Origin: a virus
UHGV virus genome: UHGV-0361135
Length of the DNA stretch: 15,908 nt
Direction: 5' to 3' (one strand)
Below, one piece after another: positions 1-14,068 of this stretch (positions within the stretch are counted from its first letter, which is position 1; each line of letters opens with the position of its first letter). The notes beneath the pieces were generated by a model. The model saw nothing but the letters and a program-made list of their open reading frames with translations, did not search any database and was not told the DNA's origin. The position numbers and the translations under genes are program-made.

Positions 1-1
1 T

Positions 2-583
2 CACCTTATCAGAACCGCTTATGAAATTAACGAAGAGCCGACCGCCTATGGCGATCACGGTATTCGTATTTATGGCATCTGGTCACCCATTTCAGAGGGC
101 AAGATCTGCACTCATGCAGTGAAGTGGAAAATGGTTCGTAAGGCCGTTGACGTTCAGGAGGCGGTAGCCGACCAGGGCGCTTGCGCCCCTTGGACTCGTG
201 GCAATAACTGTCCCCTTGCTGAAAATTTGAACCAACAGGAGAAAGATAAATCAGCTGATGGGGGCACCAGAACGGACATTACCCGCATGGATGACAAGCA
301 GTTGCACGATTACCTGCACAGTATGAGCAAAAAAGAGCGCCGGGAACTGGCAGCAAGGTTACGCCTGGTTAAACCGAAACGGCGTAAAGACTACAAACAG
401 CGAATTACAGACCATCAGCGACTGCAGCTCGTCTATGAGCTGAAGTCCAGAGGATTTGATGGTAGCGAGAAAGAGGTCGATTTACTCCTTCGCGGCGGCA
501 GTATTCCGTCAGGAGCAGGCCTGCGTATCTTCTATCGGAACCAGCGTCTGCAGGAGGATGATAAATGGCGGAACCTGTATTAA
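2..583 (+). CDS. 3' end of a long ORF that enters the window already open (5' partial); probably the C-terminus of the P2-family replication initiation protein (gpA-like), judged by synteny
   Basis: Frame 2 is open from the first base of the window to TAA at 581-583. The position immediately upstream of the tum/DinI-like module and the cargo island matches the P2/186 gene order. I do not recognise the protein sequence itself. Confidence 0.5.
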
Positions 584-675
584 TTACGCTGGTTAACAAT
601 TCGTGCTCTTAATAATACCAGGCATATCAGGCTGATGAGCGTAAAAAAACGTTTTACATCAGTAAGATTATTATA

Positions 676-695
676 TACTGTAAATATAAACAGTG
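676..695. promoter_or_regulatory. LexA operator (SOS box) overlapping a putative sigma70 promoter for the downstream small-ORF/DinI-like operon
   Basis: TACTGTAAATATAAACAGTG has CTGT at 678-681, an 8-nt AT-rich spacer and ACAG at 690-693, matching the gammaproteobacterial LexA consensus CTGT-N8-ACAG. A TTTACA -35-like hexamer lies at 653-658 and TATACT at 674-679. The first downstream start codon is 42 nt away. Confidence 0.75.
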
Positions 696-736
696 GTTAT
701 GTGTACAGTATTGCTTGTGGTGTCATAGGAGGAAAA

Positions 737-925
737 ATGCAGGACTATTTTTTGGAGTCTTTGAAGCTCCAGCGCATTGATTTTTTTCTTAAGCTTGTAG
801 CGGCTAGTGAGTGTAGTGATGAAGAGAAGGGGCTGGCCCTGCAGTGGGTTTCTGAACTGACAGATGAACTCATGGCAAAAATCAGAACCCACGAATACAA
901 CCGCTCAATGGATGTCATCAGTTGA
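737..925 (+). CDS. Small hypothetical protein (62 aa), first gene of the SOS-regulated operon; possible antirepressor-like partner of the DinI-like protein
   Basis: ATG at 737 is preceded by a strong RBS, AGGAGG at 727-732. The longer ORF in the track (from 635) lacks an RBS and would overlap the LexA box. No recognisable homology. Confidence 0.6.
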   Translation: MQDYFLESLKLQRIDFFLKLVAASECSDEEKGLALQWVSELTDELMAKIRTHEYNRSMDVIS

Positions 926-935
926 GGTGACTTTT

Positions 936-1169
936 ATGCGCATTGAAATAATGATCGATAAAGAGCAGAAAATTAGCCAGTCTACCCTGGACGCCCTTGA
1001 ATCCGAGCTTTACCGCAATCTGCGCCCCCTGTATCCCAAAGCGGTAATTCGTATCCGTAAAGGTAGCTCTAATGGTGTGGAACTGACCGGACTGCAACTG
1101 GACGAAGAAAGAAAACAAGTGATGAAAATTATGCAGAAGGTGTGGGAAGACGACAGCTGGCTGCATTAA
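936..1169 (+). CDS. DinI-family protein (77 aa), resembling the DinI-like C-terminal domain of phage 186 Tum antirepressor
   Basis: MRIEIMIDK...LDALESEL...SSNGVELTG...KQVMKIMQKVWEDDSWL aligns well with E. coli DinI as I recall it (MRIEVTIAK...IDALAGEL...ILQETWESADDWF). A GAGGTGA RBS precedes the ATG at 936. Confidence 0.88.
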   Translation: MRIEIMIDKEQKISQSTLDALESELYRNLRPLYPKAVIRIRKGSSNGVELTGLQLDEERKQVMKIMQKVWEDDSWLH

Positions 1170-1170
1170 G

Positions 1171-1213
1171 AAACGTTGCTGGCGTCTGAACTTGCTTCTG
1201 ACGTCAGCAACGT
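1171..1213 (+). repeat. Inverted repeat (15-bp stem, 13-nt loop) immediately 3' of the DinI-like gene; possible terminator or boundary element
   Basis: aacgttgctggcgtc (1171-1185) pairs with gacgtcagcaacgtt (1199-1213) with one G-U position. There is no U-tract after it, so it is not a canonical intrinsic terminator. Confidence 0.5.
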
Positions 1214-1435
1214 TGAACAACTAGTTTAGTGGGGCATTAGTCATGGGGTAAAATACAGTAACCATTATTTTCACTTCCGCTCAGATTTAACCGAACGTTA
1301 GTTTTGCTACGTATGATGGGCTGCAAATTACCTTTTGGGATTTGTGATAGATACGAAAATCCTATTAGATGCTTGTTAGACCGGAAGCGCCACTTCGAAC
1401 GAAAAGTAATGGCCACTTATGCCGGTTTAAAAGCC

Positions 1436-1966
1436 TTAACCTTGTATAGTTATTTGAATATTTTCTTCATTAACACCAAAGTATAGGGCTAGCCCTGCTT
1501 TTGCCTCCTGAAGTGTTAACGGCTTAACTACATTTTCTTCTTCTTCTTCGTACTCATCACCCGCTTGATCGACAATCGAATTAGTCGGGGTTAATTTGGG
1601 AAGAGCTTTAAATTCCAACTTGTCAGCCTCAATGCCAATGTCTTTGAGGTTGCGATAAGAAACGGGATTCCGATTGCCATCCCATTGTCCTGGGATGTCA
1701 ATTTCAGCATAAGAATTGATGTTTATGATCCAGCGTTTAGGGTTTTCTGGAGCCCTGCTTACTCCCGAGATTCGACCGATCATAAAAGCATGATGATGTT
1801 TTGCTTCTTGTGATCCCCAGTCCTTTCTCGAATTTTGTACACAAACTAAATATTCGTGCTTAGCTGCATGGCTGGCGTCAAGTCTCCATGCTTGGCTTCC
1901 CCCTGTGTTCAAAATCTCTGTTAAACCACGAGCAGTAAGTACAGTAATACAGTTGGTAGTAGCCAT
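1436..1966 (-). CDS. Hypothetical 176-aa protein in AT-rich cargo island 1; function unknown, candidate accessory or anti-phage gene
   Basis: Intact 531-nt ORF on the minus strand with a purine-rich stretch (GACGGGG) upstream of the ATG at 1966. Composition differs from the flanking phage genes. It has an acidic patch (DEYEEEEEN) and a His-rich segment (KHHHAF). I recognise no family. Confidence 0.7.
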   Translation of the reverse strand: MATTNCITVLTARGLTEILNTGGSQAWRLDASHAAKHEYLVCVQNSRKDWGSQEAKHHHAFMIGRISGVSRAPENPKRWIININSYAEIDIPGQWDGNRNPVSYRNLKDIGIEADKLEFKALPKLTPTNSIVDQAGDEYEEEEENVVKPLTLQEAKAGLALYFGVNEENIQITIQG

Positions 1967-2283
1967 TGAATTGTGACCCCGTCTTTTTTAGAGAAATACT
2001 GTTGATGAATGTAGTTTACGTATTTTTTTATGGGGTAGTCAAGTTAGTATTATGCTCATTATTGGCTGTTTGTTGAGTGTTGTGAGTTGGTACTTTGTGT
2101 AGTATCTCTTGATTTATGAGGATTAAATCTAAGTTATGACAAAGGGAGGCAGGGGGAACGCGCAGCGCAAGGTGGACAGGAGGCCATAAGGACTCACTTG
2201 AAGTAAGAAAAGATCGATAAAGCAACAATGCATGTCTATGCCGCATGAATTCGCATGATCGTTTGAGGATCGTTTTAGTTGAG

Positions 2284-2311
2284 GCCCGCCAGGAATGGCG
2301 GGCTTTTGTTT
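2284..2311 (+). terminator. Rho-independent terminator-like hairpin on the plus strand with no annotated upstream plus-strand gene
   Basis: GCCCGCC (2284-2290), loop AGGAAT, GGCGGGC (2297-2303), followed by TTTTGTTT (2304-2311). Confidence 0.55.
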
Positions 2312-2481
2312 ATGTCATGCAAGTGCATGAAAACCACTACATAAAGCGGGCAGGCGTGGCGGGGATACGAGCGCGCGCTCATGGTTGAATTAATGAAATT
2401 ATGGTGTTAAATAGGCTAGCTTTTTAAGTCGTGAATATTCAATTTTTCAACTCATTTTTTTCATAGGGAGGAGTAATTGAC

Positions 2482-3180
2482 ATGGTTATGTTAGTGGATG
2501 ACTGTCCACGATGTGGATCACAAAAAATAGCGTTTGATGTTAATGGGCTGAATTGCACTAGGGTTTACAATGCATTGGGCGGGGGTAAAACATACGAGTA
2601 CGAGGTCTATTGTGTTTGCCGAGAGTGTCATAAAACGACAATGTTTCTTTGCAGACCTTTAACGAAAAATAAAACTTTAGATGGCTATAATTGGGAAAGT
2701 GGAATATTCGGCTTAAAGGAAGTTGCAGAGGTTGTTAGGCCTATATCACCGGCAGACTTAGCAGTAGAGGAGCCACCAGAGTTCTTACCTGAGCATATCA
2801 ATAGTGCATATGAGGAAGGGGCGAAATGTTTGGCTATAGGTTGTTATAATGCAGCAGCAACCATGTTTAGGCTTTGCCTTGATTATGCCACAAAAGGACT
2901 TCTTCCTGATGGGGAGCAAGGGCCTGCGCAAAAAATAAGGAGAAGCCTAGGGTTAAGAATGGAGTGGTTATTTGATAATCATCTACTGCCTGAAGCTTTA
3001 AGGGAACTAGCTGAATGCGTTAAAGATGACGGAAATGATGGAGCGCATGAAGGTATTTTGGATAAAGCTGCTGCTGAGGATCTTGAAGATTTTACCTATC
3101 TTTTTTTAGAACGGCTTTACACTGAACCTCAACGCCTTATCGAAGCCAAGACAAGGCGTGAACAAAGAAGAAACAAATAA
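2482..3180 (+). CDS. Zinc-ribbon plus DUF4145-like domain protein (232 aa); candidate single-gene defence or abortive-infection protein in cargo island 1
   Basis: GGGAGGAG RBS at 2466-2473, 8 nt before the ATG at 2482. The N-terminus has CxxC...CxxC (CPRCG...CRECH). The C-terminal region (AYEEGAKCLAIGCYNAAATMFRLCLDYATK...LRELAECVKDDGNDGAHEG) resembles the DUF4145 helical domain pattern as I recall it. Lower GC than the adjacent portal gene. Confidence 0.75.
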   Translation: MVMLVDDCPRCGSQKIAFDVNGLNCTRVYNALGGGKTYEYEVYCVCRECHKTTMFLCRPLTKNKTLDGYNWESGIFGLKEVAEVVRPISPADLAVEEPPEFLPEHINSAYEEGAKCLAIGCYNAAATMFRLCLDYATKGLLPDGEQGPAQKIRRSLGLRMEWLFDNHLLPEALRELAECVKDDGNDGAHEGILDKAAAEDLEDFTYLFLERLYTEPQRLIEAKTRREQRRNK

Positions 3181-3188
3181 GTTCGGAA

Positions 3189-4226
3189 TTATTCTTCTGA
3201 AAGAATATAGGGCGTAAATTTAATCACTTCTTCGCCCAGCCAGTCGTTCAGCTCTTGTAGCCTTTTTTGCAAGGGCGTTAATTCATTACGTACAAATACG
3301 CGACTGGCCTTCTCCACATCCCCAAATCCCCCAACATTATTAGGCATTATCCCCATCATTTGTGGCGGTACACGGTGCGCAGCCATCATGTCATCGCGGC
3401 TGACATTTTTGATATTCAGAAACTCATCCTTCGCCGCGACTTCTGACAGAGGAATGATCTGAAGGCCGTCCTTTTTGCCGTTCGGCGAGTACATAAACAG
3501 GTTACGGAAATTGCCAGGTCCTTTGGCGCTTTTCATCGCATTACGGAGGTTGTTTACATCCTCCTGGTTCTGCGCGGCGTCGGTCATGTACATGATGAAG
3601 CCTGCGTGGCTGCCGTTAATGTAATACTTGCGGCGGAACAGCGTGGCGGACTCGTTGAGTAGGGCTGACGGAATGGCAGAAAGATAACCGGGCAGGCCGT
3701 AGATCTCCTGGTTGATATCCGGTTCCATCAGGTGAAAAATGCTGCCTTTCGTGAACTGATACGGTTGCGTGGTCATGCCGTATTGCACAAACCAGTAGGT
3801 ATCCAGGTCTAATCCGCGTCGGGTGTATTTTGCCAGGGCAGGTTCAAGGGCGATAACTTCACCGAAGCGGTTCGTGCGTTTCTCCAGGTAGGCGTTACCA
3901 AAAACCAGATAGTCCTGCACAAAACGCGAAAAAGCCTGCTGGCTGAGCAGCGGGTGAGGGATGTAGGTGCTGGTCAGAATGTTGCACTTTACTGCAATCG
4001 GGGAACTATGATGCACGGCAGCGCGGAAGGTGCGCGCCAGTCCGTCAAAGCTGACGGGCGGCTCATACCAGCGGTCCATCTGTACGCATTCCACATAATC
4101 CAGCAGTTCTCGGCGGTCCAGAACAGGAACGGGATCGCCGAAGCTGAATGCTTCGGCTGTAGTTTGACTTTTAAGCTGGATCTGTTTCGTCGCCGCAGCG
4201 CGGTTCTTCTTACTCTTTCCCATCAA
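3189..4226 (-). CDS. Q: Capsid portal protein (P2 gpQ homolog)
   Basis: 345-aa ORF with a P2 Q-like N-terminus (MMGKSKKNRAAATKQ...), located immediately downstream of P on the minus strand with a 4-nt ATGA start/stop overlap. Canonical P2 Q-P arrangement. Confidence 0.92.
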   Translation of the reverse strand: MMGKSKKNRAAATKQIQLKSQTTAEAFSFGDPVPVLDRRELLDYVECVQMDRWYEPPVSFDGLARTFRAAVHHSSPIAVKCNILTSTYIPHPLLSQQAFSRFVQDYLVFGNAYLEKRTNRFGEVIALEPALAKYTRRGLDLDTYWFVQYGMTTQPYQFTKGSIFHLMEPDINQEIYGLPGYLSAIPSALLNESATLFRRKYYINGSHAGFIMYMTDAAQNQEDVNNLRNAMKSAKGPGNFRNLFMYSPNGKKDGLQIIPLSEVAAKDEFLNIKNVSRDDMMAAHRVPPQMMGIMPNNVGGFGDVEKASRVFVRNELTPLQKRLQELNDWLGEEVIKFTPYILSEE

Positions 4227-9676: not shown

Positions 9677-10169
9677 ACGCTGCCTTGTCGGGGCCGTGCT
9701 GGCTATTGCTGCCACGCTGCCGGATTTTCAGCAGCTTCACACCTCCGTGGAGGGGCTGAAACTGATTGCTGATTACGAAGGCTGTCGTCTGCAGCCGTAT
9801 CAGTGCAGCGCGGGTGTCTGGACCGACGGCATTGGTAATACATCGGGCGTCATTCCCGGCAAAACAATCACGGAACGACAGGCAGCAGAAGGGCTGATCT
9901 CCAACGTGCTGCGTGTGGAGCGGGCACTGGAAAGGTGTGTGAAGCAACAGCCACCACAGAAGGTGTATGACGCTACGGTGTCGTTTGCCTTCAACGTGGG
10001 AACTAGCAATGCCTGCAGTTCCACACTGGTGAAATTGCTCAATCAGCGGCGCTGGGCGGATGCGTGCCGACAGTTACCGCGCTGGGTTTATGTGAAAGGT
10101 GTGTTTAATCAGGGGCTGGATAACCGCCGTGCGCGGGAGATGGCCTGGTGTTTACAGGGAGCAAACTGA
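9657..10169 (+). CDS. K: Endolysin, GH24 (T4-type) lysozyme with an N-terminal signal-anchor-release (SAR)-like hydrophobic segment
   Basis: 170 aa; the N-terminal stretch CLVGAVLAIAATL is followed by the lysozyme catalytic region (EGLKLIADYEGCRLQPYQCSAGVWTDGIGNT), which matches the T4/P21 lysozyme E...D...T pattern. Confidence 0.9.
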   Translation: MNPSVVKRCLVGAVLAIAATLPDFQQLHTSVEGLKLIADYEGCRLQPYQCSAGVWTDGIGNTSGVIPGKTITERQAAEGLISNVLRVERALERCVKQQPPQKVYDATVSFAFNVGTSNACSSTLVKLLNQRRWADACRQLPRWVYVKGVFNQGLDNRRAREMAWCLQGAN

Positions 10170-10170
10170 A

Positions 10171-10548
10171 ATGAAAAAGAAATTAATCAGCGGGCTGTTT
10201 CTGATGTTATGGATGGCGCTGTTAATTGCAGCAATGGTGTATCCGCAGGGGATTTTTCCGGTACTGGCAGCGTCCGGCGTTTGGGTAGCCTGTTTACTGA
10301 CATGGGCGGTAATTCCGGTAGCACTGGCTGCGTTAATTAAGAATGGCTCGCTCTGGCAGGAGTTGAGGGCATCTTTGCTGAAGACCATTACCCGAAAAGA
10401 AAACGTATTTATCAGCTGGGTGATGCGATTGCTGATTGTCGTAAGTCTCGCCTGGACGGGGTGGGCTATTACCCTGGTCTTTTATCTACTGACCGTTATT
10501 GCCTTCTGGATCACCCGTAATCAGATGGCGCAACAGGTAGCAGCATGA
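10171..10548 (+). CDS. lysA: Lysis regulatory membrane protein (P2 LysA-like)
   Basis: Start chosen at ATG 10171 (MKKKLISG...), just after the K stop, with a GGGAG RBS. The protein is multi-spanning hydrophobic. The track's upstream extension from 10099 overlaps K and is unlikely. Confidence 0.8.
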   Translation: MKKKLISGLFLMLWMALLIAAMVYPQGIFPVLAASGVWVACLLTWAVIPVALAALIKNGSLWQELRASLLKTITRKENVFISWVMRLLIVVSLAWTGWAITLVFYLLTVIAFWITRNQMAQQVAA

Positions 10549-11964: not shown

Positions 11965-12816
11965 TTATTTCATTTCGTGTGGCATATTTATGGCTTTAAT
12001 TTTTTCGTGGTAATGATTAAACTCAATATGAGTATTGGTAAAATTGGATTCAAATGTATTCATTAAATTGGAATATAATGATTCATATGATAAGGATACT
12101 TTTTTTCCATTTTTTTCTGCAGTTGTGCTAATGTACCTATGTACTGCAGAAAAAAGAAAATGACCTCTAAGCCACTTTCTGTATTCTATCGATTTTGATT
12201 TGAAAGATGAATCGATGTTATCTGGTTCCACACCTAATTTTTCAATGATGGTGTTTTTGTAACTCGTGATTTTTTGCTCGCAAATTTCATTTGATTTTCT
12301 AGATTTCATGAAACGATCTGCACTGTCACCAATAACTGAAATGCCTTTTCTATAAATATGATTGTATATATCAAGTTTTATTAGGGGTTCCATTTTGGTA
12401 TAAAAGTCTTCTGTCCAAGAATCGACGTTGACATCGTTCATTATCTTTTGAGGTAATTTTCCGAGAGTTTTTATTGCCTTATATATGCCTGTTTTGTCAA
12501 TAAACGTGTTTTCGATGGAGTGCCCATAAGTTTTTACAATGCGACTATCAGCGTTTTCCTCATTTTCAAATGTAGTGAAGTCTGCATCACATGCAATTAT
12601 AATTTGAAGATCTTCATCAGTAACTCTATCAATATATTTTTTTAATTCTTCACAGCCGCCAACATCTTTGATTTCAACCTTTAATGAACTAGCTTTATTA
12701 AAGATGATTTCCCAAAAGCAAATATCATCTGGGCCTTCAACATAAACCATGGCTTCAGCTTGGTAAAATAAATTCATTACATTTTCTGCTTCGGCAGAAT
12801 AATGGAAATCATCCAT
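11965..12816 (-). CDS. OLD-family TOPRIM-like nuclease candidate (DUF4435-like; AriB-like or AbiLii-like), second gene of the island-2 defence operon
   Basis: Start chosen at ATG 12816 (MDDFHYS...), which has a GGAGA RBS 9 nt upstream and an 8-nt overlap with the upstream ATPase gene. The track start at 12900 has no RBS. The N-terminal VYVEGPDD (Glu at about residue 27) and the later IIACDADF (DxD) fit a TOPRIM catalytic E...DxD arrangement. Strongly AT-rich. Confidence 0.75.
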   Translation of the reverse strand: MDDFHYSAEAENVMNLFYQAEAMVYVEGPDDICFWEIIFNKASSLKVEIKDVGGCEELKKYIDRVTDEDLQIIIACDADFTTFENEENADSRIVKTYGHSIENTFIDKTGIYKAIKTLGKLPQKIMNDVNVDSWTEDFYTKMEPLIKLDIYNHIYRKGISVIGDSADRFMKSRKSNEICEQKITSYKNTIIEKLGVEPDNIDSSFKSKSIEYRKWLRGHFLFSAVHRYISTTAEKNGKKVSLSYESLYSNLMNTFESNFTNTHIEFNHYHEKIKAINMPHEMK

Positions 12817-14068
12817 GAACCAATTTCTCCATATCAAAGATTGCATTTCGATATTTAGAAGCCACTTCTGGTGAATGCGTAGCGGCGATAATTTGCGCAT
12901 TAGGATTAAGTTGTTTGATTGCAGGTATTATTTTTCGTTGCCATGCAATATGTAGCGATAATTCTGGTTCATCAGTAAGATAGATGAAAGGTTTGTTTTG
13001 CTGTAGCAAAGTTTCAATAAAAAGAATTAATAGCTGTTTTTCACCAGACGATAAATTACTATGGCTAATCGGCCCATGCTCGTTTTCTATTACTAGCTCA
13101 CCGGAGATAAAATTAAATTTTTTATCGGTTATGAACTCATGTAATGTTTCTAAAAATAGATTTATAGGAAGAAATATGTTTTTTATTTTCTCCTCGGATT
13201 TTAAAGACATCTTTATAATTCTTTGCGTCTTTCGTAATGCCTCAAATGATCTGTAATCTACATTTAAAATATTTCTGTTATTTTTTTCTGCAAGTCGTAA
13301 TTCTTCAAATGTTTTGGCAATAGATTCAACGTGAAAGTTAATCTTCTTTCTGACATCACTATCAAAAGCTCCAAGCTGAGAATATGCAGCTATTAAATTT
13401 CTACGTTCTTTTTCTTTATCAAAAGAAAAGTTAAATGTGTCATCGATACCATCTTCTTTACTATAAAGAATAGAAGCAAGAACCTCTTTCTGTAATATTG
13501 CAGAAACATCACGAGCTCTTTGTGATAAATAAAGTTGATATTTTGTTAGATTCTGCAATAATTGTTCTAATCGGTAATCAACAGGGTTGATTAATTTTGA
13601 GCCATATTTGTCTCTGATTTCAAAATCTTCACCGCTTCTAAGTCGGTAAACTGATAGAGAAGATAAAGCAACTAATTTATCTAACTCTAACTTAAGTTTT
13701 TCAACGTCTTCCTGATATTTTCTCCTCATATATATAGGTAGTCTACGATCTTCAAAGGATCTGATAATATATTTCTTTCTAGAAATTGTATATTCAAACG
13801 TAGGCAAAGCTTTAGTTATGTCAAATTTACTCACAACTTTTATTGTTTTAGTTTTGCTTCCTTCTTTTATTTTTATTGTTACATTATCAAAACTATTCTC
13901 ATTTAGTGATTCGAGTTCTAATGCCAGAACTGAGTGAAGAATATTCATAAAGGTTGTTTTACCGGTCCCATTTCGACCAATAATAATATTTACATCTTCA
14001 TTAAATGAACATGATGCATTTAGTCTTCCCCAAAAACCTTCAATCTTGACACTAGATAATCTAAACAT
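12809..14068 (-). CDS. ABC/AAA_21-type ATPase (419 aa; AriA-like or AbiLi-like, OLD-family ATPase-like), first gene of the island-2 defence operon
   Basis: AAGGA RBS 5 nt before the ATG at 14068. Walker A GRNGTGKTT near the N-terminus, ABC signature-like LSSGEKQLL, Walker B IYLTDEPELSLH and H-loop AATHSP near the C-terminus. Strongly AT-rich relative to the flanking phage genes. Confidence 0.85.
   Translation of the reverse strand: MFRLSSVKIEGFWGRLNASCSFNEDVNIIIGRNGTGKTTFMNILHSVLALELESLNENSFDNVTIKIKEGSKTKTIKVVSKFDITKALPTFEYTISRKKYIIRSFEDRRLPIYMRRKYQEDVEKLKLELDKLVALSSLSVYRLRSGEDFEIRDKYGSKLINPVDYRLEQLLQNLTKYQLYLSQRARDVSAILQKEVLASILYSKEDGIDDTFNFSFDKEKERRNLIAAYSQLGAFDSDVRKKINFHVESIAKTFEELRLAEKNNRNILNVDYRSFEALRKTQRIIKMSLKSEEKIKNIFLPINLFLETLHEFITDKKFNFISGELVIENEHGPISHSNLSSGEKQLLILFIETLLQQNKPFIYLTDEPELSLHIAWQRKIIPAIKQLNPNAQIIAATHSPEVASKYRNAIFDMEKLVHG

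Follow-up and report, generated by a model that had tools for sequence, protein, structure and literature searches.

The region at 653-1213 of the window (the whole 15,908-nucleotide stretch of virus genome UHGV-0361135 that was analysed) is very probably the SOS operon of a Fels-2/186-type prophage of the Peduoviridae (P2-like), consisting of a LexA-repressed promoter, the gene of an antirepressor, TumA, and the gene of an accessory DinI-like protein, TumB. In a lysogen, host LexA would sit on an operator at 676-695 and block the promoter, because the operator overlaps the -10 hexamer. Upon DNA damage, RecA would be activated, LexA would cleave itself, and the operon would be transcribed. TumA would then bind the 186-type repressor CI reversibly and non-covalently, CI would lose its hold of the lytic promoter, and lytic growth would follow. 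TumB would act on RecA filaments and modulate the SOS response, as an accessory and not as the trigger. Direct binding of TumA to CI is what we infer for the window prophage by analogy with 186 Tum, whose reversible binding to CI prevents the repressor from binding its operator (Shearwin et al. 1998, as cited in PMC3121763 and PMC7708051).

Both the mechanism and the split structure of the tum gene have already been published, and the module in the window is an ordinary member of a known, experimentally characterised module. It marks the prophage as SOS-inducible, unlike P2, which itself is not. The interval proposed in the preliminary description, 653-1213, runs from the start of the -35 hexamer to the end of a strong hairpin at 1172-1214.

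SOS box and promoter

A consensus scan of the 15.9-kb window at up to three mismatches returned a single SOS-box-like match, TACTGTAAATATAAACAGTG, at 676-695 on the plus strand. This putative LexA operator agrees with the consensus TACTGTATATATATACAGTA at 17 of the 20 positions. None of 200 dinucleotide-preserving shuffles of the window contained any SOS-box match, and the core CTGT-N8-ACAG occurs once in the window against 0.17 occurrences expected. The near-consensus SOS box that the preliminary description had placed in the promoter of a two-gene operon is thus borne out, both by its closeness to the consensus and by its being unique in the window.

The predicted SOS-controlled promoter, which would be the equivalent of 186 p95, has the form TTTACA-N17-TACTGT on the plus strand, with the -35 hexamer at 653-658 and the -10 hexamer at 676-681. 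The latter is made up of the first six bases of the SOS box, so that the box lies over the -10. The layout is that annotated for 186 p95, a LexA-repressed promoter with its operator likewise over the -10, where the -10, TACTGT, opens the LexA site TACTGTATGTTTATACAGTA. As a -10 element, TACTGT is a poor match to the consensus. Only three of its six positions agree with TATAAT, and for this reason the tum promoter was not reported by a generic sigma-70 scan of the window.

About 10 nt 3' of the SOS box, the 5' leader contains a conserved TACAGT element (704-709, plus strand) in an AT-rich context. The alignment of upstream regions revealed that this element is kept in most Enterobacteriaceae relatives and missing from Pantoea/Erwinia-type loci; it could represent either the region where transcription starts or a second, degenerate half-site for LexA. 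In a second LexA box considered at 691-710, overlapping the first, the right half is good, while the left half reads GTG instead of CTG, and this box is not claimed.

The SOS box is identical in Fels-2, in the prophage DuoHS of E. coli HS and in a Klebsiella phage. To look further, a comparative set was used that contained one genome per species and was obtained with a single TumA protein as query; it comprised 33 loci (L013-L045) with TumA proteins of 71-100% identity. A CTG-N10-CAG box lies 20-77 nt 5' of the tumA ATG in 31 of the 33 species-level loci. The two others are a contig that ends 53 nt upstream of the gene and a locus with a frameshifted tumA. When 32 distinct upstream regions were aligned, conserved islands stood out from otherwise diverged DNA: an A-run with TTTAC, always 17 nt from the box, both arms of the box, TACAGT (in most Enterobacteriaceae) and the ribosome-binding site (RBS). 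That 31 of 33 species have retained the box points to selection that is still acting.

The module occurs across the Enterobacterales. A tblastn search found TumA in 66 phage records from Klebsiella, Escherichia, Salmonella, Cronobacter and Yersinia, and a separate word-indexed search for homologues listed relatives of at least 81% identity only.

The two reading frames and their relation to 186 Tum

The operon contains two genes on the plus strand, and the 62-aa and DinI-family reading frames of the preliminary description are confirmed at 737-925 and 936-1169. The first, tumA, encodes 62 amino acids between an ATG at 737 and a TGA at 923-925. It is preceded by the RBS AGGAGG at 727-732 (plus strand), 4 nt before the ATG, and GGAGG is present in all aligned relatives. 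That this frame is a coding gene follows from the third-position bias of its substitutions. Among 31 distinct orthologous sequences, 25, 14 and 50 of 55 sites are variable at the first, second and third codon positions, respectively, and 508 synonymous codon differences were counted versus 247 non-synonymous ones.

The relationship of TumA to the N-terminal part of 186 Tum rests on profile methods, since pairwise BLASTP found no similarity between the two proteins. In a profile search, TumA matched PHROG 698 with an E-value of 3.6e-38, and this PHROG was also matched, in the same register, by residues 1-70 of 186 Tum (6.7e-6). PHROGs 8554 and 1993, the latter being the family of PSP3 TumA, were likewise matched by both proteins. 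A family profile of TumA, built from a 28-member alignment, was aligned to 186 Tum with hhalign at a probability of 94.9% and an E-value of 4.5e-8, over residues 3-44 of each. On this profile evidence, TumA and the Tum N-terminus are significantly, if remotely, homologous. No family for TumA was found in Pfam or PADLOC. Its AlphaFold model is a two-helix hairpin (helices 2-23 and 28-61) with a pLDDT of 88.4.

In public records, tumA usually appears as a 'hypothetical protein' or as a 96-aa 'levan regulatory (domain) protein' (e.g., MK416009, 6146-6436). The gene could now be annotated correctly in place of either label. A 96-aa version starting at 635, which is 5' of the SOS box, was rejected for the window. 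This longer frame is not conserved, and an in-frame ATG further upstream is missing from 22 of 32 relatives.

The second gene, tumB (936-1169), starts after a spacing of 10 nt and encodes a 77-aa protein of the DinI family. It has its own RBS, GAGGTG at 924-929 (plus strand), which overlaps the stop codon of tumA. TumB matches the Pfam DinI family (PF06183) with an E-value of 7e-23 and a score of 81 bits versus a cut-off of 24. The structure of E. coli DinI (1GHH) was matched over residues 1-75 at 2.7e-6, and residues 71-145 of 186 Tum are 40% identical to TumB (E = 1e-23). The established target of DinI homologues is RecA and not a repressor. By analogy with DinI, the role of TumB is most likely to bind RecA filaments and to tune or limit the SOS signal. 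A small conserved stem-loop at 914-931 (GTCATC...GGTGAC, then TTTTATG) spans the stop codon of tumA and the RBS of tumB, and judging by its position it could couple or attenuate the translation of tumB.

Taken together, the two frames of the window match the two halves of 186 Tum, and by sequence comparison the module is a split Tum. In 186, Tum is one fused protein of 146 aa with roughly 25 linker residues, whereas the window has two separate frames. The split is formed by the TGA at 923-925, the GAGGTG at 924-929 and the ATG at 936, and tum is divided in the same manner in Fels-2 and PSP3. A fusion of the 186 kind was not evident among 66 clusters in an exhaustive representative search, as judged by protein lengths and match positions. 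Hence, the earlier proposal of a 186-type module divided over two frames stands. It is borne out by the p95-like layout, by the assignment of TumA and TumB to the N- and C-terminus of Tum, and by the 186-type CI genes of the relatives. The comparison of both frames with 186 Tum that had been suggested as a check gave the hhalign match over residues 3-44 for TumA and the match over residues 71-145 for TumB.

Several known phages carry the same kind of operon. PSP3 has a two-gene split behind a LexA box, TACTGTATAAATATACAGTA, as in the window. Its record describes tumA as 'similar to 5' end 186 tum; UV induction of prophage' and tumB as 'similar to dinI and 3' end of 186 tum'. The TumB proteins of PSP3 and the window are closely similar, but PSP3 TumA belongs to another subfamily (PHROG 1993), which the window TumA matches at an E-value of only 2e-3 and with an hhalign probability of 8.6%. 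PSP3 also differs in its CI, which has a duplicated N-terminal domain. Much closer are Fels-2 and DuoHS, whose promoter, SOS box, tumA and tumB are about 98% identical to those of the window, with few point substitutions, and whose modules likewise follow gene A. In Fels-2, a Salmonella prophage, the product of STM2728 is 98.4% identical to the window TumA, and the neighbouring STM2726.1 is annotated as similar to PSP3 TumB. In DuoHS, the pair is ECHS_RS04495 (tum) and ECHS_RS04500, and 61 of the 62 residues of TumA are identical to the window. More distant parallels are the Gifsy/Fels-1 operons (GfoA, GftA), which are also LexA-controlled and combine a small antirepressor with a dinI homologue. 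However, in these lambdoid phages, the gene order is reversed (dinI first), and the repressor family is unrelated.

These relatives bear on which of the two proteins causes induction. The preliminary description had allowed that the antirepressor function may reside in the 62-aa protein, reside in the DinI-like protein or be lost. PMC3121763 states that tum is split by a stop codon in Fels-2 and PSP3 and that antirepressor activity belongs to the upstream gene of PSP3. The study that introduced Phollow (PMC12055606) used DuoHS and designated ECHS_RS04495 as tum; this is the 189-bp gene directly 5' of the DinI-like gene. An in-frame deletion of tum and a lexA(Ind-) allele each abolished mitomycin C-induced lysis and the formation of virion foci (PMC12055606). 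According to this published work, the antirepressor in near-identical modules is the 62-aa protein, so that of the locations offered earlier the 62-aa protein is retained and the DinI-like protein is not.

The reverse assignment was weighed, in which TumB is the effector of induction and TumA an accessory or a leader peptide. It draws on two facts. Both parts form one polypeptide in 186, and the in-frame tumA deletion in DuoHS could in principle alter the translation of tumB as well, and lower it, given the 10-nt gap and the hairpin at 914-931. Against it stand the activity reported for the upstream PSP3 gene and the known action of DinI homologues on RecA. In addition, the 186 record contains a DinI-like short product, made from an internal GTG and equivalent to TumB, that is annotated only as modulating SOS induction. 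The distribution of the two genes points in the same direction. tumB was undetectable in 13 of the 33 loci, and it is truncated or frameshifted in L027, L044 and possibly L031, while tumA and the SOS box persist. The 13 loci without a detectable tumB indicate that tumA and its operator are the constant unit and that tumB is an optional accessory. An effector role for TumB is therefore regarded as very improbable, and TumA is kept as the antirepressor.

CI repressors and the specificity of TumA

The immunity region of the prophage lies outside the window, and its 186-type wiring is inferred from relatives. Every relative examined that carries the module encodes CI (PF07022, Phage_CI_repr, and PF16452, Phage_CI_C), an Apl-like protein, CII (Phage_CP76) and Fil. 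On contigs that share the flanking cargo proteins of the window, the order is CI, a divergent small Apl-like gene, CII, Fil, DUF2732, a DksA-like zinc-finger protein, a Dam methylase and gpA, followed by the 62-aa gene and the DinI gene. The same early gene order was found in Fels-2, DuoHS and a Klebsiella phage. Over their full length, the CI proteins of the relatives share 30-38% identity with 186 CI.

Nearly identical TumA proteins (96-100%) were found to be paired with many diverse, heteroimmune CI alleles, whose N-terminal, DNA-binding domains are 58-77% identical and whose C-terminal, oligomerisation domains are 24-34% identical. Across 31 pairs, the divergence of TumA was not significantly correlated with that of the N- or C-terminal domain of CI (Mantel r = -0.01 and -0.08, respectively); a correlation with one of them would have indicated the domain that TumA contacts. 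A strictly allele-specific antirepressor would be expected to track the divergence of CI. The absence of such tracking counts against allele-specific co-evolution of TumA and CI within the family, and this idea was rejected.

In L034 (Pantoea stewartii ATCC 8199), a TumA of the window type (84% identical; tumA at 10001-10186) occurs with a CI gene at approximately 3189-3764 whose product is 60% identical to 186 CI, rather than resembling the Fels-2 or DuoHS types. This pairing is either a recombinant mismatch or a sign of broad TumA specificity.

A tentative explanation, which we consider possible but on the doubtful side, is that TumA is a broad-specificity ('master key') antirepressor that would recognise a conserved surface of the CI N-terminal domain. 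Such behaviour would be analogous to that of the Gifsy/Fels-1 antirepressors, which can act in trans on other prophages according to PMC3121763. If this is true, TumA could cross-induce co-resident Fels-2-like prophages of different immunity, and TumB would be a dispensable addition.

The same diversity of CI can be read in another way, namely that the module is intact yet no longer triggers induction, being a remnant within an element that is defective or mosaic, such as one where recombination has paired it with a CI insensitive to TumA. The position of the immunity region outside the window is compatible with this, as are the very diverse CI alleles next to near-identical TumA proteins and the combination in L034 of this TumA type with a 186-like CI. 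Moreover, Salmonella BTP5 carries a tum homologue, yet infectious phage was not detected (PMC7067206). The state of the window itself speaks for a functional module. Both reading frames, both RBSs, the -35 hexamer and the box are all intact, and they are the same as in DuoHS, which is demonstrably inducible. The portal, terminase, capsid, lysis and baseplate genes in the window are full length, and the box, kept in 31 of 33 species, speaks for ongoing selection. A module that has ceased to trigger induction is thus considered improbable, and an SOS operon that still drives induction remains the preferred reading.

Genomic neighbourhood and cargo

The window begins inside gene A. The 3' end of this gene, a homologue of P2 gpA and 186 A, occupies 1-583 on the plus strand, where the megablast matches are annotated as replication endonuclease. 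The SOS operon follows directly 3' of it, and the order of A and then tum is that of 186, in which the tum operon lies to the right of gene A near cos; its position in the window is the same. The cos site was located at 2353-2371; its core, GGCGTGGCGGGGA at 2353-2365, is identical to the 19-nt cos annotated in 186 over the first 13 nt of the latter. This location places tumA, tumB and a 176-aa gene at the right end of the packaged genome and a DUF4145 gene at its left end.

Beyond tumB, the window departs from its relatives. In 186, the operon runs on into orf97, and in Fels-2 and DuoHS, co-oriented genes lie 3' of the tumB stop codon. The operon in the window, in contrast, has two genes only and ends at a convergent gene, which encodes 176 aa (1436-1966, minus strand). 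Between tumB and this gene lies a GC-rich hairpin of 15 bp at 1172-1214 (dG = -33.7 kcal/mol, z = -5.4). The hairpin has no T-run on the plus strand and a TTTCTT tail on the minus strand, and it was not reported by a terminator scan, its loop being longer than 8 nt. Its sequence suggests that it is probably the terminator of the minus-strand 176-aa gene and possibly a bidirectional stop that also serves the tum operon. The homology with Fels-2 and DuoHS extends no further than the stop codon of tumB, which assigns the hairpin to the cargo segment.

The 176-aa protein falls in PHROG 37247 (unknown function), and no match was found for it in Pfam or PADLOC. On other contigs, its gene always adjoins tumB and is followed by variable cargo: a retron-type RT with STM3845, an AAA_21 ATPase or a HIRAN protein. 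The region next to the 176-aa gene is the P2 right-end defence hotspot.

Further cargo was found elsewhere in the window. A two-gene insertion between tail genes S and V (11965-14068, minus strand) codes for an AAA_21/AAA_15 ATPase of 419 aa and a DUF4435 protein of 311 aa. In PADLOC, they match AriA (5.7e-40) and AriB (2.8e-24) best, which identifies the insertion as a PARIS-like anti-phage defence system. DuoHS lacks it at the same position. Since the prophage is SOS-inducible by the reading preferred here, quinolones, mitomycin C, trimethoprim and other DNA-damaging treatments are expected to mobilise it together with its defence cargo.

Between cos and the portal gene, a gene at 2482-3180 (plus strand) encodes a 232-aa DUF4145 protein of PHROG 1305 with a weak PADLOC match to PD-T7-4 (1.2e-6). 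This protein is very widespread, with 4680 index blocks. Among 5426 complete E. coli genomes, 1302 match some part of window positions 1-3300, which hold the end of gene A, tumA and tumB and the adjacent cargo.
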